Shown here: positions 1 to 21,569 of the stretch, piece after piece
Layout of the letters: every line of letters begins with the position of its first letter
Numbering within the stretch: position 1 is the first letter of the stretch
Assembly: GCA_033551855.1 (NCBI GenBank)
Contig: JAWSUI010000015.1
Span: 13,337-77,336 of the forward strand
DNA: 64,000 nt
Origin: Deferrisomatales bacterium
Lineage (GTDB): Bacteria > Desulfobacterota > Deferrisomatia > Deferrisomatales > JACRMM01
Reading direction: 5' to 3'
Notes under the pieces: generated by a model
Database searches by the model: none
The model's input: only the letters and a program-made list of their open reading frames with translations
What the model was told of the DNA's origin: nothing
Program-made: the position numbers and the translations under genes

Positions 1-334
1 TGGGCTTGTAGACGGCGACGTCGTTGTTCTGGTTCCCCATGCTGAAGACGTCGTTGTGGAAGATCACGTCCCCTGGGTGCAGGTCGTCGCCGAAGTACTC
101 CAGGATGTACTTGCACACCGGCGCCAGGCTGAAGGCCAGGATGGGCAGATTCTCGGTCTGCTCGAGCATGTTGCCCCGGGCGTCGTAGAGCCCGGTGACG
201 AAGTCCTTCGCCTCGCACAGGATCGGGGACCGGGTGGTCCGCGTCATCGCGATGCTCATCTCCTCCGTGATGCTCTTCAGTCGGCGCTGGAGGATGGAGA
301 CCAGGACCTTGTCGATGGGGATCTCACGGCTCAT
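1..334 (-). CDS. Hydantoinase B/oxoprolinase family subunit (5' part; runs off the window)
   Basis: Manual translation from ATG at 334: MSREIPIDKVLVSILQRRLKSITEEMSIAMTRTTRSPILCEAKDFVTGLYD...LHPGDVIFHND. Start overlaps the hydantoinase A stop (ATGA). Confidence 0.9.
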   Translation of the reverse strand, partial: MSREIPIDKVLVSILQRRLKSITEEMSIAMTRTTRSPILCEAKDFVTGLYDARGNMLEQTENLPILAFSLAPVCKYILEYFGDDLHPGDVIFHNDVFSMGNQNNDVAVYKP

Positions 335-2436
335 GGCAGGACCCTCCGCAGGATCTCCTCCTCCTGCTCCCTCAGATACAGTGTGTACGTCCCGAAGCGG
401 TCCACGACGACGTCGAACTCCGGCGTGACGAAGGTGGTGGTGTTCACCTGCTCGATGATCACCGGCCCCTCGAGGCGGTTCCCGTGGCGCAGCCCCATGC
501 CGTCGAAGACGTCGACGTTGGTGAAGCGCTTCTCCCGGGGCAGGTACGCCCGGCGCTTCCCCTTGAAGGCCGGCGAAGGGTCGGCGCCGGCCCGGGGCTC
601 CGGGACCAGGCTCGGCTTTTCGGTGCGCCCCACGGCGGACAGCCGCAGGTTGATCAGCTCCACGGGGGTACCCTTGTCCTCCAGGGAGTACCCGTAGAGG
701 GCGTCGTGCTGGGGGTGGAACCTTCGGGCGACGGCGTGGGGATCGCAGGCCTCGGCCTCCTCCCAGGGAAGCTCGACCCCCACCTCGTGGTACTGCCGCA
801 CGTAGCGCAGGTCGGCCGTCACCTGGAACGTGACCCGCTCCTCGGGAATCCCCTCGCTCTCCAGGAGCTCCAGGCCCTCCCGGCGCATCTCCTGCAGCAG
901 GGACCGGAAGTGGCCCCGGTCCAGGGCGTCCAGCCGGGTCGGGTAGGTGCGCACGAAGTCGTGCTTGAGGTCGGATCGCAGCATCCCGGCAGCGCAGAAG
1001 ATCGAGGACTCCCGCGGGATGAGCACGACCGGGATCCCGAGCTCCAGGGCGATCTGGCAGGCGTGATTGGGGCCGGCGCCGCCGGCCGTGACCAGGGGGA
1101 AGTCGCGGGGGTCGTACCCGTTCTTGACGGCGATCTCCCGCACCGCGGCAGCCATGGAGACGTTGATCACCTCGTACATCCCGGCGGCCGCCCGGGCCAG
1201 GTCCATCCCCAGGGGCTCGGCCACGTGGACCCGGATGGCCTCCTCGGCAGCCTGCCGGTCCAGTCGGATGCGCCCCCCCGCGAAGAAATCGGGGTCCAGG
1301 TACCCCAGCACCAGGTCGGCGTCGGAGCAGGTGGGGAGCTTGCCGCCCCGACCGTAGCACGCGGGCCCCGGGTCCGCCCCGGCGCTCTGGGGGCCCATCC
1401 GCAGGAGGCCGCCCTCGTCGATCCACCCGATGGAGCCGCCCCCGGCGCCGATGGTCACCACGTTGAGCATGGGCAGGCTGATGCGGAGCCGGTCGATGTC
1501 CCCTTCGGTGGTCGTGAGGGGCCTCCCGTCCTTGACCAGGGCCACGTCGAAGCTGGTGCCCCCCATGTCGCAGGTGATGCAGTCCCGGTGCCCCTGGCCC
1601 GAGGAGAAGGCGAGGCCCGCCACCGGCCCCCCCGCCGGGCCGGAGAGGAGCGTCATGGCAGGCTTGGAGATGGCGGCCTCCGGGGAGATGACCCCCCCGT
1701 TGGAGGCCATGATCAGGAGCACGCCCCGGTACCGCAGCCCTTCGAGACGACGGATGAGGCTGCGCAGGTAGCGCTCGAGCACGGGCCCCACGTAGGCGTT
1801 GAGCGCGGCGGTGGAGACCCGGTCGTAGAAGCGGATGGCCGGAACGACCTCGGTGGAGACCGAGACGAAGGCGCCGGGCAGCGCCTCGCGGACGAGCTCG
1901 GCCGCCCGGGCCTCGTGGGCCGGGTTGGCGAAGGAGTTCATGAAGCAGATGGCGACCGCCTCGACCCCCTCCCGGCGGAAGGTCTCGACGGCGGCGGCCA
2001 CGGACTCCTCGTCCAGGGGCGTGAGCACCTCGCCCCGATAGTCGAGCCTCTCGTCCACGGGGAGGCGGAGGCGGCGCTCCACCACGGGCCGCACGTTCTC
2101 GTACCGGTTGTTGTACTGCTCCTCCCGGATGCCCCGGCGCATCTCCAGCGCGTCCCGAACGCCCCGGGTGGTGAGGAGCCCGGTCCGGGCGCCGCGGTGG
2201 GTCAGGGTGGCGTTGGTGGTGACCGTGGTGCCGTGGACGATGGTGGTCACCTTCTCCAGGAACGGCTCGGTCTCGAGGCCCCGGTCCCGCGCCATCTCCT
2301 CGATCCCCTGGATCGTCGCGATGGCGGGGTCCGCCGGCGTCGAGAGGACCTTGTAGATGTGGCTCGTCCCGTCCTCCTCGGTGAGGAGGAAGTCGGTGAA
2401 GGTCCCCCCCACGTCGATGCCGATCTTGTAGGACAT
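331..2436 (-). CDS. Hydantoinase A/oxoprolinase family, ATP-dependent subunit
   Basis: IGIDVGGTFTD, HGTTVTTN, DMGGTSFD, IGAGGGSI, GPQSAGADPGPACY. Start reassigned to MSYKIG (GGAG RBS upstream). Confidence 0.93.
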   Translation of the reverse strand: MSYKIGIDVGGTFTDFLLTEEDGTSHIYKVLSTPADPAIATIQGIEEMARDRGLETEPFLEKVTTIVHGTTVTTNATLTHRGARTGLLTTRGVRDALEMRRGIREEQYNNRYENVRPVVERRLRLPVDERLDYRGEVLTPLDEESVAAAVETFRREGVEAVAICFMNSFANPAHEARAAELVREALPGAFVSVSTEVVPAIRFYDRVSTAALNAYVGPVLERYLRSLIRRLEGLRYRGVLLIMASNGGVISPEAAISKPAMTLLSGPAGGPVAGLAFSSGQGHRDCITCDMGGTSFDVALVKDGRPLTTTEGDIDRLRISLPMLNVVTIGAGGGSIGWIDEGGLLRMGPQSAGADPGPACYGRGGKLPTCSDADLVLGYLDPDFFAGGRIRLDRQAAEEAIRVHVAEPLGMDLARAAAGMYEVINVSMAAAVREIAVKNGYDPRDFPLVTAGGAGPNHACQIALELGIPVVLIPRESSIFCAAGMLRSDLKHDFVRTYPTRLDALDRGHFRSLLQEMRREGLELLESEGIPEERVTFQVTADLRYVRQYHEVGVELPWEEAEACDPHAVARRFHPQHDALYGYSLEDKGTPVELINLRLSAVGRTEKPSLVPEPRAGADPSPAFKGKRRAYLPREKRFTNVDVFDGMGLRHGNRLEGPVIIEQVNTTTFVTPEFDVVVDRFGTYTLYLREQEEEILRRVLP

Positions 2437-2530
2437 GGCGACTCCTGGCCTTGCTATTGGTCCCATCGGTCCCATGGGTCCCAGGCCACCCACAGGGCCC
2501 ACGGGACGCATGTGACCCATGAAGAACCCG

Positions 2531-4159
2531 CTAAAAAATCTTCGGTTCCTCGAACTCCCCGAACGCCTCCCGGAAAACGTCCGCCATCTCGCCCACGGTG
2601 GCGTAGGCGCGGCAGCATGCCACCAGGGGCGGCATCACATTCGCCCCCTCCCGGGCGCCCTTCGCCAGGGCCTTCAGGGAGTCGGCCGCCTCCCGCCCGT
2701 TGCGGGACCGGCGCAGCTCCTTCAGGTCCGCGAGCTTCTCCTCCGCCCAGGAATCGTCGTACTCGTGCAGTTCCACCTCGTGCTCCCCCTCGGTGACGTA
2801 CTTGTTCACCCCCACCTTCACCAGCTCCCCGCGCTCCAGGGCCGCCTGGAACTCGAAGGCCTGCCGCGCCACCTTGCGCTGCACGTAGCCGTCCTTCACG
2901 CAGGCGAGCATCCCTCCCCGGCGGTCCACGTCCTCCATCTCCTCCCGGATCTTCTCCTCCATCTGCTTGGTCAGGGTCTCCACGAAGTAGGAGCCGGCCA
3001 GCGGGTCCACCGTGTCCCGCATCCCCACCTCCTCCATCAGGATCTGGCAGGTGCGCAGGGAGAGGAGCGCCGACCGGGGCGTGGGGATGGTGTAGGCCTC
3101 GTCGAAGGAGCACAGGGCCGTGGTCTGGGCCCCGGACAACGCCGCCGCCAGGGCGTAGTACGCCCCCCGGATGATGTTGTTCTCCGGCTCGGCCTTCGTC
3201 AGACCGGACCCGCCGCCGGCGAAGAGGCCCCGGAGCCAGAGGTTCCGCGGGTCCTTGACCCCGTACCGGTCCCTGAGGTTCTGGGCCCACACCTTCCGGC
3301 CGGCGCGGAACTTGGCCACCTGCTCCCACAGGTTCCCGAAGATGTTGAGGTTGAAGCTGAAGCGCCCCACGAACTGGTCCGGGTGGTAGCCTCGGCGCAC
3401 CACCTCGTCGATGTAGGCGTTGGCGATGCCGAAGGCGTAGGCCATCTCCTGGGCCGGGGTGGCCCCCGACTCCCGGATGTGGTACCCGCAGATGCTCACC
3501 GGGTTCGTGCGGGGCATGGCCTCGATGGAGTATTCGATGGTGTCCCCGATCAGCCGCACCGCCGGGTCCAGGGCGTAGATCCAGGCGCCCCGGCCGATGA
3601 CCTCCTTGAGGATGTCGTTCTGGGGGGTCGCGGAGATTCGGGTCCGGTCGAACCCCAACTTCTCGCCCACGGCCTGGTACATGGCCAACATGATCGAGGC
3701 CACGGCGTTGATCGTGAGCCCGGCGCCGACCTTGTCGAGGTCGATGCCGGCGAAAGCGACCTCGAAGTCCCGCAGGCTGTCGACCGCCATGCCGACGCGA
3801 CCCACCTCGCCCTCGGCCATGGGGTGGTCGGAGTCCAGACCCATCTGGGTCGGCAGGTCGAACGCCACGTTGAGGCCCGTCTGGCCGTGGGCGATCATGA
3901 GCCGGAAGCGCTCGTTGGTCTCCCGGGGGGTCCCGAACCCCGTGTACTGCCGGGTCGTCCACTCCCGCGACCGGTACCCTTCGGCGAAGAGGTTCCGGGT
4001 GAAGGGGTACTCCCCCGGCTCCCCCAGGTCGGTCCCGTAGTCGAACCCGACCGCGGCCAGGTCCTCCGGCCCGTACTTGGCCTTGACCGGGATGCCGGAG
4101 GCCAGAATCACCTCCCGGATGCGGTCCTTTTCGTCTTTCACATATCGCGCGACGTCCAT
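2531..4159 (-). CDS. B12-dependent acyl-CoA mutase, large (substrate-binding) subunit; divergent MCM family
   Basis: PGEYPFTR, RQYTGFG, AFDLPTQMGLDSD, QNDILKE, GYHIRE, DPLAGSY. No B12-binding domain. Confidence 0.93.
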   Translation of the reverse strand: MDVARYVKDEKDRIREVILASGIPVKAKYGPEDLAAVGFDYGTDLGEPGEYPFTRNLFAEGYRSREWTTRQYTGFGTPRETNERFRLMIAHGQTGLNVAFDLPTQMGLDSDHPMAEGEVGRVGMAVDSLRDFEVAFAGIDLDKVGAGLTINAVASIMLAMYQAVGEKLGFDRTRISATPQNDILKEVIGRGAWIYALDPAVRLIGDTIEYSIEAMPRTNPVSICGYHIRESGATPAQEMAYAFGIANAYIDEVVRRGYHPDQFVGRFSFNLNIFGNLWEQVAKFRAGRKVWAQNLRDRYGVKDPRNLWLRGLFAGGGSGLTKAEPENNIIRGAYYALAAALSGAQTTALCSFDEAYTIPTPRSALLSLRTCQILMEEVGMRDTVDPLAGSYFVETLTKQMEEKIREEMEDVDRRGGMLACVKDGYVQRKVARQAFEFQAALERGELVKVGVNKYVTEGEHEVELHEYDDSWAEEKLADLKELRRSRNGREAADSLKALAKGAREGANVMPPLVACCRAYATVGEMADVFREAFGEFEEPKIF

Positions 4160-4244: not shown

Positions 4245-4655
4245 CTATTCTCGCGGCGCCCCTCGCCCCACGTTCTCCCGGATGAACCGGATCGTCTCCT
4301 CCAGGGGCGTGCCGCCGGGGAAGATCCCCTTCACCCCCAGCTCACGCAGGGCATCGAAATCCCGGCTGGGGATCACCCCGCCCACGCACACCAGCTTGTC
4401 CGCCGCCCCCTTGTCCCGCAGGAGCCCCATGAGCTTGCGGCAGATGGGGAGGTGACCCCCGGTCATCACCGAGAGGCCCACCACGTCCACGTCCTCCTGG
4501 ACCGCCGCCTGGACGATGGACTCGACGCTCTGGTGAAGGCCGGTGTAGACGACCTCCATGCCGGCCTCCTTGAGCGCGTGGGCTACCACCTTTGCCCCCC
4601 GGTCGTGTCCGTCCAGGCCGGGCTTCGCCACCAGAACCTTGATCTTACGGCTCAA
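4245..4655 (-). CDS. Acyl-CoA mutase small subunit (cobalamin-binding)
   Basis: KPGLDGHDRG DxHxxG motif, GGVIP. TTG start with GGAGG RBS. Confidence 0.93.
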   Translation of the reverse strand: MSRKIKVLVAKPGLDGHDRGAKVVAHALKEAGMEVVYTGLHQSVESIVQAAVQEDVDVVGLSVMTGGHLPICRKLMGLLRDKGAADKLVCVGGVIPSRDFDALRELGVKGIFPGGTPLEETIRFIRENVGRGAPRE

Positions 4656-4768
4656 CTTGGCCTCCGTCTTCGTCCCCCGATTCCGGTCTCGGTCACGGCT
4701 CCGATACCGATAGCGATCCCGATGCCGATGTCCTCACCGAACACCCGTCACGCGTCGATCGTCGCCCG

Positions 4769-5062
4769 TCACCCGTGGCGGTACTGGACGCCGCAGCCTC
4801 CCCGCGGGTACCTCCAGGAGAGGGCATCCTCCCGGCAGGCGACGAGGCAGGTGCCGCACTCCAGGCACCCGGCGTACTCCACCACCATCTGCTGGGCCTC
4901 GTCGTTCCACTCGTACAGCGCAGCCGGGCACACCCGGATGCAGTACCGGTCGGAGCACCGGTCCCGGCAGATCTCGGCGTCCACCGCGATGTGGCTCTCG
5001 GCGTCGTGCTTGATGGCGTTCTTCGTGAGCTTCGCCGCGACGTCCACGTCCTCGCTCCTCAT
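4769..5062 (-). CDS. fixX: FixX-type ferredoxin
   Basis: CIRVCPAALY, CLECGTCLVAC, WRYPRGGCGVQY. Directly downstream of fixC. Confidence 0.88.
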   Translation of the reverse strand: MRSEDVDVAAKLTKNAIKHDAESHIAVDAEICRDRCSDRYCIRVCPAALYEWNDEAQQMVVEYAGCLECGTCLVACREDALSWRYPRGGCGVQYRHG

Positions 5063-8299: not shown

Positions 8300-9448
8300 T
8301 TACCGCTCCCGCACGATCTCGCGGCCCACGAAATCCTTGATGATCTCGTGGGTACCGCCCCCGTACAGGAGGAAGCGGGCGTCCCGGAAGTACCGCTGGG
8401 GCCCGTACTCCGAGGCGAACCCGTTCGCGCCGTAAATGCGGGTGACCTCGTCCACCACCTTCAGGCACGTCTCCGTGGCGAACATCTTCGCCATGGCGGC
8501 CTCCCGCCGGGGGTTCATCCCCTCGCCGATCATCCAGGCCACCCAGTAGACCATCAGGCGGGAGGCCTCCATCTCGGTGGCCATCTCCGCCAGCTTCGCC
8601 CGGATGAGCTGGTACTCGCCGATCGCCTTCCCAAACGCCCGCCGCTTCCGGGCGTACTCCAGGCCGTCGGCGAACGCCGTGCGGGCCATGCCGAGGGCCA
8701 TGGCCCCCGTCATGCAGCGAACCTCGTTGAGGATCTCTCCCAGGTAGACCACCCCCTTGCCCTGCTCCTCCCCCAGCAGGTGCTCGTCGGGCACGAAGAC
8801 GTCGTCCAGCACCAGCTCGCCGCAGGCCGGGCCCCGGGCCCCCAGCTTGTGGAGGAGCTGCCCGGGCTGGAACCCCGAAGTTCCCTTCTCCACCAGGAAG
8901 AAGTTCAGGGCCTTCATCCCCTGGGAGGGATCCGTCGTCGCCAGCACCGTCGCGAAGTCCGCTGTGGGGCCGTTGGTGATCCAGTTCTTCGTGCCGGTGA
9001 GCCGCCACCCCCCGTCGACCTTCGCAGCCAGGGTGCGGGTGGCCGCGAGGTCCGAGCCGGACTGGTCCTCCGTGAAGCACATGGTGGCGATCTTCTCCCC
9101 GCGCAGGGCCGGCAGGAGACACCGCTCCCGGATTCCAGGGCTCCCGAACCGGTACAGGAAGTGGGTGCCCATCAGCATGTTCATGATCACGGCTTGGGCG
9201 AACCCCACGGAACCCCGGGAGAGCTCCTCGTAGAAGAGCATGCAGGTCACCGGGTCGGCGTTCATCCCCCCGAGCTCCTCCGGGTAGCGCAACCCCAGGT
9301 ACCCGAGCTCGGCAAACTCGCGCCACAGGGAGGCGGGAATCTCGTCCGCCTCGTCGATGTGCTCCACGTGGGGAAGGACCAGCCGGTCCACCGTGTCGGC
9401 CACAGCCCTCCGGAAGAACTCCTGCTCCTCGGTCAGTCGAAAATCCAT
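8300..9448 (-). CDS. Acyl-CoA dehydrogenase
   Basis: FTEDQSGSD, GTKNWITNG, RRAFGKAI, RYFRDARFLLYGGGTHEI. The C-terminal YEGT Glu is Gly, so the catalytic base probably lies in helix G (LNEVR). Confidence 0.93.
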   Translation of the reverse strand: MDFRLTEEQEFFRRAVADTVDRLVLPHVEHIDEADEIPASLWREFAELGYLGLRYPEELGGMNADPVTCMLFYEELSRGSVGFAQAVIMNMLMGTHFLYRFGSPGIRERCLLPALRGEKIATMCFTEDQSGSDLAATRTLAAKVDGGWRLTGTKNWITNGPTADFATVLATTDPSQGMKALNFFLVEKGTSGFQPGQLLHKLGARGPACGELVLDDVFVPDEHLLGEEQGKGVVYLGEILNEVRCMTGAMALGMARTAFADGLEYARKRRAFGKAIGEYQLIRAKLAEMATEMEASRLMVYWVAWMIGEGMNPRREAAMAKMFATETCLKVVDEVTRIYGANGFASEYGPQRYFRDARFLLYGGGTHEIIKDFVGREIVRER

Positions 9449-10782: not shown

Positions 10783-10868
10783 CGGGACCTCTTCTCCGGA
10801 TGTGTTTGTTTTTGACTGTGTATTGTTCTACTCAGTATAAAAATCCGTTTGTCACATTTCGAAGTCGC

Positions 10869-10897
10869 AGTCTAGAGCCCTCTTTGGGCTCTGTCAA
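10869..10897 (-). promoter_or_regulatory. Sigma70-type promoter of the leftward (CoA-transferase) operon
   Basis: Minus strand TTGACA-17 nt-TAGACT. The spacer contains the inverted repeat AGAGCCC-N5-GGGCTCT. Confidence 0.65.
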
Positions 10898-10957
10898 CCG
10901 GGGGCGTTTACGATTCCTAGCGCGACCCTTCACATCGTCGGAAATCCTTTTGTAGCG

Positions 10958-10986
10958 TTGACAGAAGCGAGACCCTCTGCTACGGT
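10958..10986 (+). promoter_or_regulatory. Sigma70-type promoter of the molybdoenzyme operon
   Basis: TTGACA-17 nt-TACGGT with extended -10 TG. Palindrome CAAACA-G-TGTTTG downstream (11027-11039). Confidence 0.6.
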
Positions 10987-11117
10987 CCCTCCCTGCAGCG
11001 GGTCGGCTTCGGGTGCGGTCCGCACACAAACAGTGTTTGGGCAACGCGCAACCGGCGTTGCGGCCCATTCGGCGCAGACCGGGCGCCCCGCCGCCGCTGG
11101 GCATCCGGGAGGAGACG

Positions 11118-12125
11118 ATGCTCCGACTTCCTCCGCTCGACGTCCTCCAGCCCGAAGCCCTCGACGGCGCCCTGGCCGCCCTCGGCGCGCCCGCGCCCCC
11201 ACGCGTCCTGGCGGGGGGCACCGACCTCCTGGTCTCCCTCAAACAAGGACACACTCCCGGAAACGCGGGGGTCCTGCTCAGCATCGCCCGCCTCCCCCTG
11301 CGGGGAATCTCCCCGGGAGAGGCCCGGTGGGAGCTGGGGGCGGGGACCTCGCTCGCCGAGGTGACCCGCTGGGCTGCCCCGGGGGCGCTCGCCGTCGTTC
11401 CCCGGGCCGCAGCCTTGGTCGCCGCACCTCCACTCCGGACCCGGGCCACGGTGGGGGGCAACCTGTGCCTCGACACCCGCTGCGCGTTCTACAACCAGTC
11501 CGCCTTCTGGCGCAGCGGGAGGCCCCCGTGCCACAAGGCGGGGGGAGAAGTCTGCCACGCGGTGCCCGGGAGCCCACGGTGCCACGCCTGCCACCAGGCA
11601 GACCTCCCGCCGGTGTTGATCGCCCTGGGGGCCGAAGTCGAGGCGAGGGGCCCCGCCGGGGCAAGGGTCTTTCCCCTGGAGGAGCTCTACTCGGGGGACG
11701 GCCGGGAGCCCCTGCGCCTGGCGGCCTCCGAGCTCCTGACCCGCGTCCTGCTCCCCCTCCCCCCTCCGGCCGCCGGGGCGGGGTACGAGAAGCTCCGCCC
11801 CCGGAAAGGCCTGGACTTCCCGGCCGCTTCCGCGGCGGTCTACCTGGAGCGGTCCGAGGTCGGGCTGTGCCGGGAGGCCCGGATCGCGGTGGGGGCCGTG
11901 GGGTCCGGCCCGCTGCGGGTGCCGGAAGCCGAGAGGTGCCTGGTGGGCTCCGACCTCGGGGCCTCGGCCCTCGAGGCGGCGGCCGCCGAGGCCCGGCGGG
12001 CCGCGCGGCCGGTCAAGAACGCGGACTTTACGCCGGCCTACCGGCGGCAAGTGGTGGGGACCCTGGTCGCGCGCGCTGCCCGTACCGCGTGGGAGGCGGC
12101 CCAGAGAGGGAGGTCCGAGTCGTGA
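11118..12125 (+). CDS. Xanthine-dehydrogenase-family FAD subunit with HcrB-type [4Fe-4S] insert
   Basis: LAGGTDLL, ATVGGNLCLDTRC..YNQS..WR....C.K.GG..C......C, LRPRKGLDFP. GGAGG RBS before ATG 11118. Confidence 0.9.
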   Translation: MLRLPPLDVLQPEALDGALAALGAPAPPRVLAGGTDLLVSLKQGHTPGNAGVLLSIARLPLRGISPGEARWELGAGTSLAEVTRWAAPGALAVVPRAAALVAAPPLRTRATVGGNLCLDTRCAFYNQSAFWRSGRPPCHKAGGEVCHAVPGSPRCHACHQADLPPVLIALGAEVEARGPAGARVFPLEELYSGDGREPLRLAASELLTRVLLPLPPPAAGAGYEKLRPRKGLDFPAASAAVYLERSEVGLCREARIAVGAVGSGPLRVPEAERCLVGSDLGASALEAAAAEARRAARPVKNADFTPAYRRQVVGTLVARAARTAWEAAQRGRSES

Positions 12126-12631
12126 GCGGGGCACAGAAGGCCATCCTGGAGCTCAGGGTGAACGGCAACCGGCACACGGTCCTCGCGGCCCCAGGGCGCA
12201 CCCTGCTCGAGGTCCTGCGGGAGGACCTGGGCCTGACCGGCGCCAAGGAGGGGTGCGGCGTGGGGGCCTGCGGGACGTGCACGGTGCTGCTGGACGGGGC
12301 CCCGGTACGCTCCTGTCTGACCCTGGCCTGTGAAGCCCAGGGCAGTGAGATCCTGACGATCGAAGGGTTGGCGGAGACCTGGGCAGACCGGGCCGAGGGG
12401 GAGCTCCACCCCGTCCAGGAGGCCTTCGTGGAGGGCCACGGGATTCAGTGCGGCTTCTGCACGCCCGGCATGATCCTCACGGCCAAGGCGCTGCTGGACG
12501 AGAACCCGGACCCCACCGAGGCCGAGGTGCGGGCCGCCCTGTCCGGGCAGGTGTGCCGCTGCACGGGGTACGCCAAGATCGTGGAGTCGGTCCTGGGCGC
12601 CGCCCGCCGCCTCCGGGAGGTGCAGCCGTGA
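12122..12631 (+). CDS. Xanthine-dehydrogenase-family 2x[2Fe-2S] subunit (HcrC/CoxS-like)
   Basis: GAKEGCGVGACGTCTV, SCL, QCGFCTPG, CRCTGY. GTG start overlaps the previous stop. Confidence 0.93.
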   Translation: MSGAQKAILELRVNGNRHTVLAAPGRTLLEVLREDLGLTGAKEGCGVGACGTCTVLLDGAPVRSCLTLACEAQGSEILTIEGLAETWADRAEGELHPVQEAFVEGHGIQCGFCTPGMILTAKALLDENPDPTEAEVRAALSGQVCRCTGYAKIVESVLGAARRLREVQP

Positions 12632-14925
12632 AGCCCGGCCGAGTGATCGGTACCAGCATCCCGCGGCGGGACGCGCGCCTGAAGGCCACGGGCGAGGCCC
12701 GCTACGCGGCGGACGTGAGCCTGCCCTTCATGCTCCACGCCGCGGTCCTGCGCAGCCCCCTTCCCCACGCCCGGATCGTGCGGCTCGATGCCGCCCCGGC
12801 CCTCGCACTGCCCGGGGTCAAGGCGGTCGTGACCGCCGCCGACGCCTCCGGCGTCAAGTGGGGCGTCTTCCGCTACACGCGGGATCAGGAATTCCTGGCA
12901 CGGGACGTGGTGCGCTACATCGGCGAGGAGGTCGCGGCGGTGGCGGCCGAGACCGAGGAACTCGCCCGGGAGGCGGTGTCCCGGATCGTCGTGGAGTACG
13001 AGCCGCTGCCCGCGGTCTTCGACCCCCTTTCCGCCATGGCGCCCGGCGCACCGCGGGTGCACGCGCACGCGGAGCGCAACGTGAACATCCACGTGCCCAT
13101 ACACGTGGGCGACGTGGACGCGGCCCTGGGCGAGTGCGCGCACGTGCACACCGAGCGCACCGAGAGCGAGGAGGAGAGCTACTTCATGACCGAGCCCTAC
13201 GCGGTGGTCGCCCACTGCGACCGCCAGGGCACGGTCGAGGTCTGGATGCCCAACGCAAGCCCCCACACCAAGGCCAAGGGGCTGGCGAACGCCCTCGAGC
13301 TCCCCGTCTCCAAGGTCCACGTGCGCCACGTCACCGTAGGGGGTGCCTTCGGGGGGCGCAGCGACATGTTCCCGGGGGAGTACATCGCCGCGCTCCTCTC
13401 CCGCAAGACCCGCCGGCCGGTCAAGCTCGTCTACACCCGGGAAGAGAACTCCATCGCCGTGCGCCAGGGACACTCCATGGTGGTGGAGAGCACCTTCGGG
13501 TTCCTGCAGGACGGCACCCTCCACGCCGCCGACGTCACCGCGCACATGGACGGCGGCGCCTACTCCTCCACCGGCCCCATCGCCACGAGCGTCCCCTTCC
13601 TGTGCTTCGAGCAGACCTACCGGGTCCCGAACGTCCGGTACAACGGGTACCGGGTCTACACCAACAAGCCCATCCGGGGGATGATCCGCACCCACGGCCG
13701 CGCCTGGGCGTGCAACGTGGACATGCAGCTCGATCTCGCGGCCCGGGCCCTGGGCCTGGACCCCATCGAGATCCGGCGCCGGAACGCCCTCCGGGGCGGC
13801 GAGCACACGCCCACCCGCAGCTTCATCCCGGTGATGGCGAGCCGCGAGACCATCGACGCCGTCGCCGAGGCGAGCCGCTTCCGGGAGAAGTGGGGCAAGC
13901 TCCCCCCCTGGCACGGCATCGGGGTGGGCTGCGTGAGCGTGATGAGCGGCTTCCCCATGGGCATCCGGGGCGGCTCCGCGGCCATGATCAAGTTCGACGA
14001 GGACGGCGGCGCCACCCTGATCTCGGGGGTGGTGGACAACGGCCAGGGCAACGAGGGTGTGGTGCTGCAGATCGCGGCCGAGGCCCTGGGGATCCCCGTG
14101 GACCAGATCCAGCTCACCGCCTCGGACACCGAGGTCACCCCCATCGACCAGGGGGCCTACTCCCAGGCCACCACCTTGGTGAGCGGCAACGCCGTGCGCC
14201 TCGCCTGCGAGGACGCCCGGCGACAGATCCTGGAGATCGCGGCCGAGGCCATGGAGGCCAGCGCCGCGGATCTGGACATCGAGGACGGGCGCATCTTCGT
14301 GCGGGGCTCCCCGTCGCGGGCCATGCCCGTGGCCAAGGCCATCCGCACAGGCCTGCTCCAGGGCAAGGCGGTGCTCGGCCAGGGCAGCTTCGGGCCCAAC
14401 GTGGACCAGACCCGGGAGTGGATCACCAACCCAAAGGGCCAGCTCGCGGCGGCCTTCAGCTACGGCAGCGCCGTGGTGGAAGTGGCGGTGGACCCGGAGA
14501 CCGGGCTGGTGGACGTCCTGGACGTGTGGGTGGCCCACGACTGCGGGCGTGCCATCAACCCCGCGGAGGTGGAAGGCCAAATGGAAGCGGGGGTCGCCAT
14601 GGGGGGCCACGGCGGCATCCTGCTGGAGGCCTGCAAGTGGCACCAGGGCGCCAACCTGAACACCGGCTTCCTGGACTACAAGGTGCCCCTTGCCCCGGAC
14701 ATGCCCCCCATCCACAACTTCATCATCGAGTCCGAGGACCCGGTCGGCCCCTTCGGCGCCAAGGAGGGGGGGCTCTCGATCTCCATGTGCACGGCCCAGG
14801 CGTACACCAACGCCATCGCCGACGCCATCGGGACCTACCTCCGGGAGTTCCCCCACACCCCGGACCGGATCCTGGACGCGATCGAGAAAAAGGGAGGGGA
14901 TGCAGGTTGGACGGAAAGCACATGA
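12628..14925 (+). CDS. Xanthine-dehydrogenase-family molybdopterin subunit (HcrA-like, divergent)
   Basis: KATGEARYAAD, LRSPLPHARI, GGAFGGR, AHDCGRAINP..VEGQ, DYKVP, GPFGAKE. Confidence 0.92.
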   Translation: MKPGRVIGTSIPRRDARLKATGEARYAADVSLPFMLHAAVLRSPLPHARIVRLDAAPALALPGVKAVVTAADASGVKWGVFRYTRDQEFLARDVVRYIGEEVAAVAAETEELAREAVSRIVVEYEPLPAVFDPLSAMAPGAPRVHAHAERNVNIHVPIHVGDVDAALGECAHVHTERTESEEESYFMTEPYAVVAHCDRQGTVEVWMPNASPHTKAKGLANALELPVSKVHVRHVTVGGAFGGRSDMFPGEYIAALLSRKTRRPVKLVYTREENSIAVRQGHSMVVESTFGFLQDGTLHAADVTAHMDGGAYSSTGPIATSVPFLCFEQTYRVPNVRYNGYRVYTNKPIRGMIRTHGRAWACNVDMQLDLAARALGLDPIEIRRRNALRGGEHTPTRSFIPVMASRETIDAVAEASRFREKWGKLPPWHGIGVGCVSVMSGFPMGIRGGSAAMIKFDEDGGATLISGVVDNGQGNEGVVLQIAAEALGIPVDQIQLTASDTEVTPIDQGAYSQATTLVSGNAVRLACEDARRQILEIAAEAMEASAADLDIEDGRIFVRGSPSRAMPVAKAIRTGLLQGKAVLGQGSFGPNVDQTREWITNPKGQLAAAFSYGSAVVEVAVDPETGLVDVLDVWVAHDCGRAINPAEVEGQMEAGVAMGGHGGILLEACKWHQGANLNTGFLDYKVPLAPDMPPIHNFIIESEDPVGPFGAKEGGLSISMCTAQAYTNAIADAIGTYLREFPHTPDRILDAIEKKGGDAGWTEST

Positions 14926-15046: not shown

Positions 15047-15481
15047 ATGAAAGCCAAGGCCATCGACCACATCTGCTTCGTCGTGCGCGACCTCGACGAA
15101 GCCGTCGCGCGCTACCGCGACACCCTGGGGATGGAGCCCGACGGGTACTACACGGCTCCCTCGGAGAGCATCCGGGTGGCCCGGTACTACCTGGAGAACG
15201 TCGCCCTCGAGCTCATGGAGCCCACCCGGCCGGACAGCGAGGTGGGCCGCTTCCTCGAGAGGCGCGGGGAGGGCTTCTTCCTCATCTCCTACCGGGTGGA
15301 CGATGTGTCCGAGGGACTTGCGGAGCTCGCCGAAAAGGGGCATCGGACCATCGACCGGGTGCCCCGGGAGCTCATGGGCAACCGGTACGCCTTCCTTGCC
15401 CCGCCCCCCCAGATGTACGGCGTGCTCACCGAGATCCTCGACGGGGAGTTCGACCGGGGCTACGATGAGGGCGGCGGATGA
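15047..15481 (+). CDS. VOC family protein, methylmalonyl-CoA epimerase-like
   Basis: IDHICFVVRDL, LELMEP....S.V.RFL..RGEG, GVLTEI. Confidence 0.8.
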   Translation: MKAKAIDHICFVVRDLDEAVARYRDTLGMEPDGYYTAPSESIRVARYYLENVALELMEPTRPDSEVGRFLERRGEGFFLISYRVDDVSEGLAELAEKGHRTIDRVPRELMGNRYAFLAPPPQMYGVLTEILDGEFDRGYDEGGG

Positions 15482-15532: not shown

Positions 15533-16456
15533 GTGAACCCTGACCCGACCTTCTCTTCCGTCGACGCCATCATCCGGGCGTTCCGGGAGCACCACTACGT
15601 GGCGGACCCCGCGGTCGCCACGATCCTCTACCTCAGCCGGGCGCTGCAGAAGCCCCTGTTCCTGGAGGGTGCGCCCGGCGTGGGGAAGACCGAGCTGGCC
15701 GTGGTCCTGGCGCGGGCCATGGACACCGAGCTCATCCGCCTGCAGTGCTACGAAGGGCTGGACGCCTCCATGGCCCTCTACGAGTGGAACTACCCCCGCC
15801 AGATCCTGGAGATCAAGCTCCAGGAGGTGTGCGGGGACCGGGATCGGCTGGCGCGGACGATCTTCAGCGAGGAGTTCCTGATCAAGCGGCCCCTGCTCCA
15901 GGCCATCCAGCACCCCGGTCCACAGCCCGCGGTGCTGCTCATCGACGAGCTGGACCGGGCCGACGAGGAGTTCGAGGCCTTCCTGCTGGAGCTCCTGGCG
16001 GACTACCAGATCACCGTCCCGGAGCTCGGCACCCTGCGCGCCGTGGTGAAGCCGATGGTCATCGTCACCTCCAACCGCACTCGGGACGTCCACGACGCCC
16101 TCAAGCGCCGATGCCTGTACCACTGGATCGACTACCCGGACTTCGACAAGGAGTACGCCATCGTCCGGAGCCGCCTGCCGGGCGTGGAGGAGCGGCTGGC
16201 CGCCCAGGTGTGCCGCTTCATGGAGCGCATCCGGACCGAGGACTTCCTCAAGCGGCCCGGTGTCGCGGAGACCCTCGACTGGGCCGCCGCCCTCCTCGCG
16301 CTCAACCACCACACCCTGGACGCCCCGGTGGTGGAGGCCACCCTGGGATGCATCTTCAAGAACCAGCAGGACATCCAGGTCTTCCGGGAGCAGATCTGGG
16401 GGGACGAGGGCCGCCGCCGGGAGTACCTGCAGGACGTGAAGGAGAACGTGTGTTGA
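15533..16456 (+). CDS. CoxD-like MoxR AAA+ ATPase
   Basis: LEGAPGVGKTE, RLQCYEGLD...ALYEWNY, LLIDELDRADEEFEA, DALKRRCLY. Confidence 0.92.
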   Translation: MNPDPTFSSVDAIIRAFREHHYVADPAVATILYLSRALQKPLFLEGAPGVGKTELAVVLARAMDTELIRLQCYEGLDASMALYEWNYPRQILEIKLQEVCGDRDRLARTIFSEEFLIKRPLLQAIQHPGPQPAVLLIDELDRADEEFEAFLLELLADYQITVPELGTLRAVVKPMVIVTSNRTRDVHDALKRRCLYHWIDYPDFDKEYAIVRSRLPGVEERLAAQVCRFMERIRTEDFLKRPGVAETLDWAAALLALNHHTLDAPVVEATLGCIFKNQQDIQVFREQIWGDEGRRREYLQDVKENVC

Positions 16457-16496
16457 GCGCTGCCCCTGCGCGGCCCGCCCGGGCGCCGAGGCCTCG

Positions 16497-17279
16497 GTGA
16501 CGCCGGCCGGGGACGGGCCCCGGCCCCGCATCCGGGAGCTCCTGGAGGCCGGCGAAGCCTTCTGCCTGGCCACCGTCGTCGCCTCCCGCGACCCGGCGGT
16601 GCGGGTGGGGGCGAGAGCCGTCGTCCGAGGGGACGGGACCGCCGAGGGGGAGCTCGGCGACGAGGGGGTGGGCCGGGAAGTGCACCGCCTCGCGCGGGAG
16701 GCACTGGGGCGCCGGCGCAGGGGCCTCGTGGAGCCGCGCCCCGGTCTGCAGGTCTTCCTGGACGTGATGGCACCGGAGGCCGAGCTCCTGGTGTGCGGGG
16801 CGGGCCACATCGCCGTGCCGCTGGCCGCATTCGCCCGGCAGCTCGGTTTCGCGGTGACCGTACTGGACGACCGGGCCGACTTCGCGCGCCCGGACCGGTT
16901 TCCGGGCTGCGAGGTCGTGGCCGAGGACTTCGTGGGCGCCCTCCGGCGGCTGCCCCTGGGGCCCGACACCTATGTGGTGGTCATCACCCGGGGGCACGAG
17001 CACGACGCCGAGTGCCTGGCGGAGGTCCTCCCGAAGCCGACCGCCTACGTGGGCCTCATCGGGAGCCGGCGGCGGGTGGCCTTCGTCCTGGAGATGCTCG
17101 GCCGCGAGGGCGTCCCCGCGGAGCGGCTGACCGAGGTCTTCACTCCCATCGGGGTTCCCCTGGGGGCCGAATCGCCGGAGGAGATCGCCCTGTCGATCGC
17201 CTCCGAGCTGGTCTGCGTGCGCCGCAAGGGGCCGGAACAGGCCCGCGCCCTGCGGGACGCCGCAGGGGGAAGCCGATGA
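16497..17279 (+). CDS. XdhC/CoxF molybdenum cofactor maturation protein
   Basis: CGAGHIA, DDR, TRGHEHD, YVGLIGSRRR, PIG...GAESPEEIALSI. Confidence 0.9.
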   Translation: MTPAGDGPRPRIRELLEAGEAFCLATVVASRDPAVRVGARAVVRGDGTAEGELGDEGVGREVHRLAREALGRRRRGLVEPRPGLQVFLDVMAPEAELLVCGAGHIAVPLAAFARQLGFAVTVLDDRADFARPDRFPGCEVVAEDFVGALRRLPLGPDTYVVVITRGHEHDAECLAEVLPKPTAYVGLIGSRRRVAFVLEMLGREGVPAERLTEVFTPIGVPLGAESPEEIALSIASELVCVRRKGPEQARALRDAAGGSR

Positions 17280-17593
17280 CCGACCGGGAGATCTTCGCGC
17301 GCCTCGCTGCGCTCCGGCAGGACGGGAAGGAGGTCTGCCTGGCCACCATCGTGGAGGCGGCCGGCTCCACGCCCCGCGACGTGGGGGCCAAGATGCTCGT
17401 GTGCGCCGACGGCACCACCTTCGGCTCGGTCGGGGGAGGCTGCGGCGAACGCCAGGTGAAGACCGCGGCGCTCCGGTGCCTCCTGACCACCCGTGCCCCG
17501 GAGCTGGTGGAGGTCGACCTCACCGACGATCTCGGCACCCGGGGCGGCGACGTCTGCGGCGGCCACATGCGGATCTTCGTCGAGCCGGCCTGA
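17276..17593 (+). CDS. XdhC/CoxI N-terminal domain protein
   Basis: LATIV...GSTPRDVGAKMLV..DG..FGSVGGGCGE, CGGHMRIFVEP. ATG overlaps the previous stop. Confidence 0.88.
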   Translation: MTDREIFARLAALRQDGKEVCLATIVEAAGSTPRDVGAKMLVCADGTTFGSVGGGCGERQVKTAALRCLLTTRAPELVEVDLTDDLGTRGGDVCGGHMRIFVEPA

Positions 17594-17821
17594 CCCCCCG
17601 GCACCGCTGCCGTCATCGCCATCGGTATCGGTGTCGCGATCGGAATCGATCCCGATCCCGATGGGGATGGCGAGCTCGAGGAACAGGCGCCGCCGGTCTG
17701 GTTAGGGCGCCGTAAAATGCGGGCTGCATCCCCGCCCTTCGGGGGGGCCCGGTGGCATTTCGGTCTTCACTTCGGGAGCCTTGGGAGGAGAGAGATGACG
17801 ACGCACGAAGACTGAGCGCCG

Positions 17822-18976
17822 ATGTCCGACCTCTCCACGCCCCCGCGCCCCGGCCGCCCGGAGTCCCCCGACGGACCGTTGGGCATGGCGGGGAACATCG
17901 TTGCCTTCTCCCGGCTCCTCAAGGACGCCGGGCTCCCCACCCACCCCCAGGCGGTGGTCGATGCCTGCCGATCCGTGGCCCTGCTGGACCTCGGCGACCG
18001 CCGGCAGGTCTACTGGGCGCTCCGGGGCAACCTGGTCACCGACCGGCAGCGCTACGAGGCCTTCGACCGCCTCTACCGCCTGTTCTGGGAAGAGGGGGTC
18101 CGCCGGCTCCCCCGCCGGCAGCCGGCCCCGCTGGGCCGGATCCCCGTCTTCGCCCCCGTCCCCCCCGGCGGGGAAGGGGTGGGGCGGACCGCCCCCGACG
18201 CCTCCGGCGGCGCCAGCCCCGACGAGCTCTTGATCCGCAAGGACCTGCGCACCCTCGCCCCGGAAGAGGAACCGCGGCTCCGGGAGATCCTCCAGTCCCT
18301 CCTCGCCAAGCTCGCCACCCGGCCGGGCCGCAGGTACCGGCCCACCTTCCGGGGCCGCGGCCTGGAGCTCCGCCGCACCTTCCGGCGCAACGCCGCCCTG
18401 GGCGGCGAGCTCGTCCGGCTCGTCCGCCGGGCGAGAAGGGTCCGCCGCCTTCGGGTGGTGTTCCTCGGGGACGTCTCCGGGTCCATGGACGCCTACAGCC
18501 GCTTCTTCCTCCTGGTGGCCCACGCCCTCGGGCGGCAGGAACCCGGGGTCGAGGTCTACGCGTTCTCCACGCGGCTGTTCCGGCTCACCGAGTTCGTGCG
18601 GGACCGGGACGCCAGCCGCGCCCTGGAGCGCCTGGCGCAGCAGACCCTGGGCTGGTCCGGGGGGACGAGGATCGGCCAGTGCCTCGGCGAGCTGCACCGG
18701 GCGCTGGCCCGCCGCCCCCGCCTCCGGGACACCGTGGTGGTCATCCTGAGCGACGGCTGGGACCGGGGGGACCCCGGCCTGGTGCGGCGGGAGATGGCTC
18801 GCCTCAAGGGGGCCGTCTCACGGATCTACTGGCTCAACCCCCTGAAGGGCGACCCCGATTACCGTCCCCTGTGCCAGGGCATGGCCGCCGCCCTGCCCTA
18901 CGTGGACGGCTTCTACCCGGCCCACAACGTGGAATCCCTGGCCCGCTTCACCCGGCAGCTCGTCCGCGTGCGGTGA
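17822..18976 (+). CDS. CoxE-like VWA domain protein
   Basis: DVSGSM MIDAS, FSTRL, WSGGTRIG, SDGWDRGD, WLNP. Confidence 0.9.
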   Translation: MSDLSTPPRPGRPESPDGPLGMAGNIVAFSRLLKDAGLPTHPQAVVDACRSVALLDLGDRRQVYWALRGNLVTDRQRYEAFDRLYRLFWEEGVRRLPRRQPAPLGRIPVFAPVPPGGEGVGRTAPDASGGASPDELLIRKDLRTLAPEEEPRLREILQSLLAKLATRPGRRYRPTFRGRGLELRRTFRRNAALGGELVRLVRRARRVRRLRVVFLGDVSGSMDAYSRFFLLVAHALGRQEPGVEVYAFSTRLFRLTEFVRDRDASRALERLAQQTLGWSGGTRIGQCLGELHRALARRPRLRDTVVVILSDGWDRGDPGLVRREMARLKGAVSRIYWLNPLKGDPDYRPLCQGMAAALPYVDGFYPAHNVESLARFTRQLVRVR

Positions 18977-19057: not shown

Positions 19058-20422
19058 ATGGACCAGACGAAGTACCTCCTCACCGAGAAGGACATCCCGC
19101 GGCAGTGGTACAACATCGCCGCCGACATGCCCAACCCGATGAAGCCGCCGCTGCACCCCGGCACCGGACAGCCCGTGGGCCCCGACGCCCTCGCACCGCT
19201 CTTCCCCATGAGCCTCATCGAGCAGGAGGTGAGCTCTCAGCGGTGGGTGGACATCCCCTCGGAGATCCTCGACATCCTCAGCCTGTGGCGCCCGACCCCG
19301 CTCTACCGCGCCCACCGTCTGGAGAAGGCCCTGGGGACCCCCGCCAAGATCTACTACAAGTACGAGGGGACGAGCCCGGCGGGCAGCCACAAGCCCAACA
19401 CCAGCGTGGCGCAGGCCTACTACAACATGAAGGAGGGCGTGAAGCGCATCGCCACCGAGACCGGGGCCGGCCAGTGGGGCAGCGCGCTCTCCCTTGCCTG
19501 CAACTTCTTCGGCATCGAGGCGAAGGTGTACATGGTCAAGATCTCCTACGAGCAGAAGCCTTACCGGCGCATGCTCATGGAGACCTGGGGCGGCAAGGTC
19601 ATCCCGAGCCCGTCCAACGAGACGGCGGCGGGCCGGAAGATCCTGGCCGAGAACCCGAATTCCACGGGCTCCCTGGGCATCGCCATCTCCGAGGCGGTCG
19701 AGGACGCCGCCGGCCGCGACGACACCAAGTACGCCCTGGGGTCGGTGCTCAACCACGTCCTGCTGCACCAGACCGTGGTCGGCCAGGAGGCCCAGAAACA
19801 GATGGAGATGGCCGGCGACTACCCCGACGTGATCCTGGGGTGCTGCGGCGGGGGCTCGAACTTCGCCGGGCTCGCCTTCCCCTTCCTGCGGGACAAGATC
19901 GCCGGGAAGGCGATCGACGTGATCGGGTGCGAGCCCACGGCGTGCCCCACCCTCACCAAGGGGCACTTCCACTACGACTTCGGCGACACGGTGGGGATGA
20001 CCCCCCTGCTGCCCATGCACACCCTCGGCCACACCTTCGTCCCGGCCGGCATCCACGCGGGGGGGCTCCGGTACCATGGGATGGCGCCCCTCGTGAGCCA
20101 GCTGCTCAAGGACGACCTGATCCGGGCCATGGCCTTCCACCAGGTGGAGTGCTTCGACGCCGGAGTGCTCTTCGCCCGGAGCGAGGGCATCGTGCCGGCC
20201 CCCGAGTCGAACCACGCGATCCGGGGCGCCGTGGTGGAGGCCCTCAAGGCCAAGGAGGAGGGAAAGGAAAAGACGATCCTGTTCCTGCTCTCGGGCCACG
20301 GCCACTTCGACATGTCGGCGTATGAGGCCTATTTCGCCAAGACCCTCGAGGAGTACGAGCTCCCCGGGGCGGAGCTCGACAAGGCCTGGGACGCGATCAA
20401 GGGGCTGCCCTCGGCCGCCTGA
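19058..20422 (+). CDS. trpB2: TrpB2-type tryptophan synthase beta (stand-alone; indole salvage type)
   Basis: [18 protein letters not shown] (PLP Lys), [24 protein letters not shown]. Confidence 0.93.
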
Positions 20423-20429
20423 GGAACCG

Positions 20430-20460
20430 AGGGGGGGCGGGGCCCGGCCCCGCCCCCCCT
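20430..20460. terminator. GC-rich hairpin between convergent trpB2 and trpD-like genes
   Basis: AGGGGGGGCGGGGCC-C-GGCCCCGCCCCCCCT. Confidence 0.6.
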
Positions 20461-20489
20461 TCCCGGCAACGAGCCGTGTCCCGCTCGGG

Positions 20490-21569
20490 CTACGCCTCCC
20501 GGAACCAACCCCGGCTCAGCCGCTGGGTGCGCTCCGCCAGGGCCTCGAGCTTCGCTCTCGCCCCGCCCGAATCCAGGCCCTGCAAGGCCATCCGGACCCC
20601 CTCCGGCAGGCCCTTGGCGACCCCGGCCGCGTAGAGGGCCGCCCCGGCGTTCAGGACCACGATGTCCCGCCGGGGACCCTGCTCTCCTCCCAGCACGGCC
20701 CGAACGATCGCCGCGTTCTCCCGGGCGTCGCCCCCCGCGATGTCCTCCGGCGACGCGCGCCCCAGGCCGAGCTCCTCCGGCGTCACCGCGTACTCCCGGA
20801 TCGCCCCCTCCCGCACCTCGGCCACCTCGGTCGCCCCGCACACGGTGATCTCGTCCAGCCCGTCCTCCCCGCGCACCACCAGGGCCCGCTCCGCCCCCAG
20901 GGCGAGGAGCGCCTCGGCCAGCACCCGCGGGGACTCCCTGGCCCCCACCCCCACGAAGTGGCAGCGGGCCCCGGCCGGGTTTGCCAGGGGGCCGAGGAGG
21001 TTGAAGATCGTCCGAAGCCCCAGCTCCCGCCGCGGGCCGACCACGTGCCGGATGGTGGAGTGGAAGAGGGGCTCGTAGAAGAAGCCGATCCCGACGGTCT
21101 CGAGGCAGTCCTCCACGGCCGACGGGGTGAGGTCCGGCTCCACCCCCAGGGCCGCCAGGACGTCCGCACTCCCGCACAGGGGCGCCACCGCCCGCAGCCC
21201 GTGCCGCACCACCCGGACCCCGCAGGCAGCCACCGCGAAGGCGGTGGCGGTGGAGACGTTGAAGGTCCGGGTGCCGGAGCTCCCCGAGGCCATGAAGGCG
21301 GCGATCGTCTCTTGGTCCACGTTGATCTCGTCGCGGTCGATCGCCACCAGGGGCGCCCCGGCCCGGATCGAGGGCCCCAGGGAGCGCAGCACCCGGGCCG
21401 CCCCGGCGAGCTCCGAGCCGGTCACCCCCTTCACCCGCAGGGCCATGAGGAAGGCCCCGATCTGGGCGGCAGTCGCCTCCCCCCGGGTCACCTCGGTCAT
21501 GACCGCGATCATCTCACCCTCGGACAGGTCCTCGCGCCCCGCCAGTCTCGCCAGCGCCTCCCGGATCAT
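20490..21569 (-). CDS. trpD: Anthranilate phosphoribosyltransferase homologue with degenerate PRPP-binding motifs
   Basis: TFNVST, GSADVL, RRELGLRTIFNLLGPLANP, DGLDEI are present. DTCGTGG is replaced by AFMASGS and KHGN by RHGL. Confidence 0.85.
   Translation of the reverse strand: MIREALARLAGREDLSEGEMIAVMTEVTRGEATAAQIGAFLMALRVKGVTGSELAGAARVLRSLGPSIRAGAPLVAIDRDEINVDQETIAAFMASGSSGTRTFNVSTATAFAVAACGVRVVRHGLRAVAPLCGSADVLAALGVEPDLTPSAVEDCLETVGIGFFYEPLFHSTIRHVVGPRRELGLRTIFNLLGPLANPAGARCHFVGVGARESPRVLAEALLALGAERALVVRGEDGLDEITVCGATEVAEVREGAIREYAVTPEELGLGRASPEDIAGGDARENAAIVRAVLGGEQGPRRDIVVLNAGAALYAAGVAKGLPEGVRMALQGLDSGGARAKLEALAERTQRLSRGWFREA

Follow-up and report, generated by a model that had tools for sequence, protein, structure and literature searches.

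Gene content of the cluster

The 64,000-nucleotide stretch analysed here (the window) spans positions 13,337 to 77,336 of contig JAWSUI010000015.1 from a Deferrisomatales bacterium (assembly GCA_033551855.1). Its first 21,569 nucleotides hold a cluster that resembles the iaa genes for anaerobic indole-3-acetate degradation and includes a three-subunit molybdoenzyme, here called Mo2. G000 denotes the source genome, C numbers are its contigs (C15 carries the window), and other G and L numbers are compared genomes and loci. A first-pass annotation had described the cluster as iaa-like and as a divergent pair of operons. Every gene it listed is an intact open reading frame (ORF) on the strand assigned to it, and the divergent pair stands except for a TrpD paralogue, which is convergent with TrpB2 and hence outside both operons. 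The operons are separated by a 335 bp divergent promoter region (10783..11117) with 59% G+C versus about 70% elsewhere. Two sigma70-like sites were found in this spacer on the minus strand, facing the left operon (expected number 0.0).

The reference iaa cluster was locus L029 of Aromatoleum buckelii U120; the studied strain, EbN1, is a different one. L029 was located with the published EbN1 iaaF primer (PMC8360864), whose exact sequence occurs there at the start of an acyl-CoA dehydrogenase gene. The primer matched 29 loci in all; 28 have no iaa-type cluster, and EbN1 was not among the matches. The neighbours in L029 encode a thiolase, a ligase, hydantoinases A and B, the mutase subunits, a molybdoenzyme, a coenzyme A (CoA) transferase, a binding protein, two regulators and a 3-hydroxyacyl-CoA dehydrogenase. 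This is the gene set reported for iaaA-M, P, Q and R (PMC9613470), and Iaa names were assigned to L029 by this match of gene sets, not from EbN1 protein sequences.

The left operon lies on the minus strand. Beginning at the spacer it encodes orthologues of the class III CoA-transferase IaaL (9589..10782, 40–42% identity) and the acyl-CoA dehydrogenase IaaF (8300..9448, 45%), then EtfB (7451-8215), EtfA (6430-7395), FixC (5113-6399) and FixX (4769-5062). These are followed by the B12-binding subunit IaaG (4245..4655, 59%), the B12 mutase large subunit IaaH (2531..4159, 56%), the ATP-dependent hydantoinase A IaaC (331..2436, 58%) and hydantoinase B, the IaaE orthologue (70% to A. buckelii HydB). 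The window takes in just 334 bases of the last gene, its 5' end (1..334); the whole gene is at C15 11928-13670. To the left of the window the contig extends a further 13.3 kb, into which the operon continues (locus L001) with two PaaK-type CoA ligases that are 73% identical to each other (C15 10366-11655 and 8988-10271), a second xanthine dehydrogenase (XDH)-family enzyme, Mo1, orthologous to IaaIJK (5199-8929; large, small and medium subunits 45, 53 and 42%), YqeB (4367-5179) and a TRAP transporter (1111-3990). A thioesterase gene (444-980) is on the plus strand, opposite to the operon. The annotation had proposed looking left of the window for a CoA ligase, a thiolase and a hydratase; the two ligases are there, and neither a thiolase nor a hydratase is in the cluster, the left extension of about 13 kb included.

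The right operon is on the plus strand and begins with the three Mo2 genes, encoding a FAD subunit (11118..12125), a 2Fe-2S subunit (12122..12631) and a molybdopterin subunit (12628..14925). Next come a VOC-fold protein (15047..15481), the molybdoenzyme maturation genes CoxD, two of XdhC type and CoxE (15533..18976), and TrpB2 (19058..20422). The TrpD paralogue (20490..21569) is on the minus strand.

Nine L029 proteins (IaaC, E, F, G, H, I, J, K and L) have their best G000 match in the cluster, from 40% for IaaL to 70% for IaaE. Whole-genome reverse searches against A. buckelii made IaaF, H, L, K and C reciprocal best hits. IaaE, G, I and J were reversed against L029 only, and the IaaG match is a one-way best hit. 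A GGG motif replacing YEG is reported to define IaaF (PMC8360864). The dehydrogenase at 8300-9448 is the only GGG carrier among 14 acyl-CoA dehydrogenases of G000, two of which were unreadable, and it groups with IaaF at a tree support of 100. The mutase at 2531-4159 also groups with its Iaa counterpart at 100 and has four motifs common to IaaH that differ in the two other mutases of the genome; its closest named homologues are from Deferrisoma and Deferrisomatales (83–85%). These best matches, reciprocal hits, motif and tree supports bear out the iaa-like assignment. The core is very probably, as judged from sequence, an iaa-orthologous cluster like those of strict anaerobes, and its predicted function is the anaerobic degradation of indole-3-acetate. 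In kind this core is known, and a strict-anaerobe iaa operon with its own electron-transfer flavoprotein (ETF) has already been published. FixX-FixC-EtfA-EtfB are the predicted electron sink for IaaF. The EtfB motif is DDE, as against DGDT in another ETF type seen in some relatives; we take this motif to mark the ETF type.

Outside the cluster, an IaaA-like thiolase (50%) is encoded on C3 beside indolepyruvate oxidoreductase, and IaaP, queried with its first 380 amino acids, has a best match of only 28–34% in G000. Among named families the hydantoinase matches caprolactamase best, with a score under the cut-off. Many relatives carry, in iaa-like clusters (mutase regions L251-L268, L234 and L243), a different hydantoinase pair at the same position, 31–38% identical to IaaC/E, which hints at a different ring-opening substrate. 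In L008 (4722-10022), from another genome, two acyl-CoA dehydrogenases flank a split B12 mutase that is 42–47% identical to the window mutase; by identity this is not an iaa locus.

Mo2 and the genes that travel with it

The first-pass annotation had taken the molybdoenzyme in the window to be the ring hydroxylase. Mo2 matches IaaK at 33%, versus 45–47% for Mo1, which fits that role. In a quick tree Mo1 joined IaaK (99), while 37 Mo2 sequences formed their own clade (100) on the HcrA-like side. By both sequence and fold the nearest solved relative of Mo2 is 4-hydroxybenzoyl-CoA reductase (HBCR; 1RM6, TM 0.89, about 32–35% identity). The AlphaFold model (pLDDT 80.5) supports the fold only. The molybdopterin subunit scored 596 bits against an HcrA cut-off of 994, the FAD subunit fell below that of TIGR03195, and none of the TIGR03193-5 cut-offs was reached. 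A true HcrA is encoded elsewhere in G000, on C29 (1164 bits, same cut-off). The Mo2 FAD subunit aligns Cys for Cys with the HcrB-type four-cysteine [4Fe-4S] insert of 1RM6_B, which was kept in 35/35 relatives.

The active site of Mo2 is altered. Numbering follows an alignment to 1RM6. At the column of the catalytic Glu726 of HcrA, 97/120 Mo2 homologues have Met, 23/120 have Leu and none has Glu; at that of Gln214, 119/120 have Ala. The window enzyme has Leu716 and Ala210 at these places. Glu was also absent from 37/37 genome copies and from 77/77 readable metagenome copies (3 were unreadable), sets that overlap with each other and with the 120 homologues. Equivalents of HcrA Arg248 and His360 are kept. 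In the aligned active-site segments of Mo2, invariant polar residues are His213, His356 and Glu713 (each 120/120) and Arg358 (119). In hydroxylation the catalytic Glu is reported to activate the Mo-bound oxygen (PMC10420851). The Atlas places Mo2 in a 246-member cluster with Thermodesulfobacteriota as its commonest phylum. By sequence, then, Mo2 is a separate HBCR-like clade, distinct from IaaIJK and from true HcrA. No description of Mo2 was found in a literature search in which no query was aimed at a Glu-less enzyme and subscription papers were largely outside the scope. The C29 locus with the true HcrA-type enzyme (L120, 9870-20552) also encodes a second HcrB-type enzyme, below cut-off and with Glu kept, and two CoA ligases nearby.

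The distribution of Mo2 was surveyed across 401 genomes sampled evenly from the phylum, with fixed E-value cut-offs, fragmented assemblies and related genomes included, and, in one of the scans, only two candidates scored per genome. Mo2 was found in 68 genomes and the IaaH-type mutase in 85, with 67 carrying the two together. Among the 316 mutase-negative genomes a single one had Mo2, and it carries IaaE. With IaaE as marker the coupling is lower (25/68 Mo2 genomes); this understates it because many hosts use another hydantoinase, and the mutase is the better marker. An iaa core gene was near Mo2 in 20 of 39 genome regions, which were picked for top score or long contigs, and in 35 of the 53 metagenome loci of at least 10 kb (80 loci in all). 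Mo2 was not found in A. buckelii, which has IaaP. In G306, whose iaa cluster lacks Mo2, IaaP (59%) is divergent from the CoA-transferase, the place that Mo2 occupies in the window. IaaP at 45% identity or above was found in 0/123 Mo2 regions and in 0/20 mutase regions of Mo2 genomes. Mo2 thus probably belongs to the iaa-type pathway. The occurrence of the IaaH-type mutase in 85/401 genomes suggests that catabolism of indole acids is common among these anaerobes. The best Mo2 matches in G225, G264 and G306 turned out to be other enzymes, with Glu kept.

Hosts of Mo2 usually have the benzoyl-CoA route, BamB being present in G000 and in 62/67 other Mo2 genomes and Oah in 58/68. In G000, BamB and bam-like neighbours lie at C16:16208-27303 (L124), and Oah at C1:71024-72103. 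An IaaA-like thiolase was found in 45/68 hosts; the other 23 show none with this query. In L063 (11038-13549), L065, L067 and 18 more regions, Mo2 is accompanied by genes for a saccharopine-dehydrogenase-like protein and a GSAM-like class III aminotransferase. The former occurs in 42/68 hosts at 55–89% identity and was not found in G000 nor in 9 other searched genomes of its order, and the aminotransferase partner was not found in G000.

The VOC protein had been annotated as an epimerase-like part of the pathway. Its gene is in 22/39 Mo2 regions, 13 of which have no mutase gene in view (two are cut by a contig end); it travels with Mo2, not with the mutase. The protein scored 83.7 bits against TIGR03081 (methylmalonyl-CoA epimerase; cut-off 114.95), and its second metal His, which we presume to be a metal ligand in methylmalonyl-CoA epimerase, is Leu here and another apolar residue in relatives. 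Because it occurs without a mutase gene in view and the His is lost, an epimerase role is doubtful. CoxD/E were found in 11/39 Mo2 regions. A VOC paralogue (45%) at C39:16324-21680 (L117) has a benzoate-CoA-ligase-family gene on one side and an alpha/beta hydrolase on the other, and a DMSO-reductase-family enzyme is encoded downstream.

TrpB2 and TrpD had been read as independent pointers to an indole substrate. TrpB2 (over the TIGR01415 cut-off; the trp region on C18 contains trpB1) is near Mo2 in 9/39 genome regions and 8/80 metagenome loci. Indolepyruvate oxidoreductase comes directly after it in five genomes from this order, in two from another family and in further metagenome loci, suggesting conversion of indole to tryptophan and on to indoleacetyl-CoA. 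In G000, TrpD adjoins TrpB2 instead and the indolepyruvate oxidoreductases lie elsewhere. Indole conversion through TrpB is reported for bifidobacteria (PMC11085991). It is quite possible, if a little short of probable, that TrpB2 feeds indole in through tryptophan and indolepyruvate. The TrpD paralogue passes the anthranilate phosphoribosyltransferase score (TIGR01245, 333 versus a cut-off of 199) and is 58% identical to the housekeeping trpD product encoded on C18. It is without the GTGG and KHGN motifs, the former presumably the phosphoribosyl pyrophosphate loop and both presumably functional in TrpD, so the anthranilate binding claimed for it is not a given. It is kept in five related genomes (83–91%) and adjoins TrpB2 in three. 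A separate clade of degenerate TrpD, a term used only for sequences without GTGG (GTGGS variants are ordinary), is convergent at the end of the Mo2 operon in L131 (11192-12247) and L182 (15685-16740), and in L198 (21448-22272) lies 5 kb past indolepyruvate oxidoreductase. That TrpD is here by chance, as its absence from all 39 Mo2 regions had implied, was overturned by these relatives with TrpD beside TrpB2 or the Mo2 operon; the recurrence of both genes beside such clusters is the part of the pointer that held.

Proposed pathway and alternatives

In the proposed pathway, very probable by orthology as far as IaaF, the TRAP transporter would take up the substrate and a PaaK-type ligase would form indoleacetyl-CoA. 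Mo1 would hydroxylate C2, IaaCE would open the lactam with ATP, and IaaL would move the CoA. IaaGH would then convert (2-aminophenyl)succinyl-CoA to (2-aminobenzyl)malonyl-CoA, and IaaF would carry out oxidative decarboxylation to 2-aminocinnamoyl-CoA, with electrons passing to ETF and FixCX. Mo2 could next catalyse an HBCR-like reduction with release of ammonia, either of 2-aminocinnamoyl-CoA to cinnamoyl-CoA or of 2-aminobenzoyl-CoA to benzoyl-CoA, and the product would enter the host class II benzoyl-CoA reductase route. With IaaP at the place of Mo2 in G306 and no IaaP near Mo2, we infer that Mo2 acts after IaaF. 2-Aminocinnamoyl-CoA is favoured as substrate because no IaaP was found. Such a reduction would also bypass a 3-oxo ester that tends to close into a quinolone. 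For the para case, D. anilini has HBCR-like proteins, induced on 4-aminobenzoate, that have been put forward as its 4-aminobenzoyl-CoA reductase (PMC7500099).

Reduction expelling the ortho amine is the most economical reading of Mo2. Taken whole, an iaa cluster with a Glu-less Mo2 likely removing the ortho-amino group reductively downstream of IaaF is a reading toward which the balance tips slightly. For Mo2 itself, reductive deamination of an ortho-amino aryl-CoA at that point is a tentative assignment that falls somewhat short of probable. Several observations speak against it. A leaving group would be expected to receive its proton from the very Glu that Mo2 has lost. The [4Fe-4S] insert is also found in oxidases such as PaoB and therefore leaves the direction of the Mo2 reaction unfixed. 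The saccharopine-dehydrogenase-like and aminotransferase pair beside Mo2 in 21/39 regions is unexplained by simple deamination. Two sulfate reducers, D. anilini and D. multivorans, are reported to grow on 2-fluorobenzoate, whereas two other strict anaerobes did not (PMC5742626); strict anaerobes can therefore handle one ortho substituent without prior removal. Mo2 was not seen in 18/85 mutase genomes, three near-complete ones checked fully included, and is therefore not obligatory; a need for Mo2 in class II reductase hosts was rejected, since 12 of those 18 have BamB. IaaP was found in only 1/18 mutase regions of Mo2-negative genomes, many of these regions being short. For the pathway upstream, G000 has no orthologue of the IaaB-type indoleacetate-CoA ligase, the best matches being 32–33% and elsewhere in the genome; the cluster has the PaaK-type ligases.

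The missing Glu and the partner genes would be accounted for if Mo2 reduced the ring of 2-aminobenzoyl-CoA, or of a cyclised quinolone by-product, with the amine kept, and the VOC protein, and in other hosts the imine-reductase-like and aminotransferase partners, turned the enamine into 6-oxocyclohexenoyl-CoA for Oah. The prevalence of Oah agrees with this. We nevertheless regard it as unlikely: BamB is already in 63/68 hosts, the saccharopine-dehydrogenase-like gene was not found in G000 or the 9 other searched genomes of its order, and ring reduction without ATP would be thermodynamically demanding. Mo2 might instead replace IaaP oxidatively, hydrating 2-aminocinnamoyl-CoA, presumably in the manner of an XDH-family Michael hydratase, and oxidising it to the 3-oxo ester. 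The exchange of IaaP and Mo2 in G306, the lack of IaaP near Mo2 and the IaaA-like thiolases of 45/68 hosts are what this would predict. Yet hydroxylation is reported to need the Glu (PMC10420851) that all 120 homologues lack, and no such thiolase appears with this query in 23/68 hosts, which makes oxidation distinctly unlikely.

A different N-heterocycle or lactam as substrate of the cluster would fit the lack of IaaA, B, M and P in it, the other hydantoinase beside the mutase in many relatives, and the sub-threshold caprolactamase match. This is improbable with IaaC and IaaE of the true type (58 and 70%), nine best hits in one cluster, the GGG motif, and TrpB2, indolepyruvate oxidoreductase and TrpD recurring nearby. 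That Mo2 is an electron-transfer or sensing complex, or a cofactor-free relic, is suggested by the loss of both Glu and Gln next to the metal. It is highly improbable in view of the new invariant polar residues lining the aligned active-site segments and of the maturase genes that come after Mo2 in the operon. The original assignment, with Mo2 as the IaaIJK hydroxylase and the VOC protein as a benzylmalonyl-CoA epimerase, would draw on the shared enzyme family, on the VOC protein scoring best, though below cut-off, with the methylmalonyl-CoA epimerase family, and on the report that methylmalonyl-CoA epimerase converts benzylmalonyl-CoA (PMC8360864). It can hardly be sustained: best hit, clade and missing catalytic Glu contradict Mo2 as IaaIJK, IaaK and Mo1 are reciprocal best hits that pair in the tree with a support of 99, 13 Mo2 regions have the VOC gene but no mutase gene in view, the VOC protein has lost one metal His, and a canonical epimerase adjoins another mutase on C3.

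Reductive deamination of the ortho-amino aryl-CoA by Mo2 can be carried further. Mo2 would found a Glu-independent class of the xanthine oxidase family, the long-missing reductive deaminase of amino-aryl-CoA esters, replacing IaaP in strict anaerobes, some of which would also burn free indole via TrpB2 and indolepyruvate oxidoreductase into the iaa route. In this full form the proposal is speculative and rather unlikely. Aminobenzoyl-CoA has been suggested since 1991 to undergo reductive deamination, and the literature covered named no characterised enzyme for this step; Mo2, with its altered active site, is a concrete and widespread candidate. The ETF-FixCX genes likewise name a candidate electron acceptor for IaaF, left open in PMC8360864.

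Neighbouring loci and comparison with known systems

Elsewhere in G000, C3:99686-109900 (L118) encodes a Sigma54 activator, an acyl-CoA dehydrogenase, a long-chain-type CoA ligase, the IaaA-like thiolase, indolepyruvate oxidoreductase alpha and beta, and TRAP genes; it may supply indoleacetyl-CoA or beta-oxidation steps. Just right of the cluster, as seen in sequence only, are an ORF for a META-domain protein (21908-22618) and one resembling a fused or adjacent AbrB-type and PIN-like pair (22700-23413). KaiC-like and KaiB-like ORFs lie at the right end of the window (57692-62162), where G+C drops to 62–67%.

TrpB2 resembles the indole-salvage enzyme in passing the TrpB-like cut-offs, but here it lies in a catabolic operon and in several lineages is followed by indolepyruvate oxidoreductase, which suggests catabolic use. 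Mo2 shares with HcrABC (1RM6; TIGR03193-5) the three subunits, the [4Fe-4S] insert, the Arg248 and His360 equivalents and the closest fold. It differs in the changes of Glu726 to Leu or Met and of Gln214 to Ala, in scoring below cut-off and in forming a separate clade.

In the D. anilini proteome table (PMC7500099), tags 00136-00154 include a CoA-transferase, ETF, mutase, TRAP, phenylacetate-CoA ligase, molybdoenzyme and hydantoinase. Ten tags from the iaa-like genes, H567DRAFT_00164-00166 are a second, three-subunit molybdoenzyme with a large subunit of 756 amino acids, known from table entries alone (Table S1). Its abundance is low, with detection in 0/3 benzoate replicates and in most 4-aminobenzoate, aniline and phenol replicates; the conditions in that table did not include indoleacetate.

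Compared with the Aromatoleum iaa pathway (IaaA-M, P, Q, R), the cluster has orthologues of IaaC, E, F, G, H, I, J, K and L at 40–70%, with the GGG and mutase motifs. It differs in having PaaK-type ligases for IaaB, TRAP for IaaM, and no IaaA, IaaP or regulator. Added here are ETF-FixCX, Mo2, VOC, the maturases, TrpB2 and the degenerate TrpD. The first-pass annotation had presented FixABCX, the epimerase and CoxDE as a new variant; Mo2, VOC and the maturases are indeed additional to Aromatoleum, while the flavoprotein part had a precedent. The predicted iaa operons of the strict anaerobes D. anilini, NaphS2 and F. placidus are described as having a dedicated ETF (PMC8360864, citing Schuhle 2016), a feature that they share with the cluster in the window.

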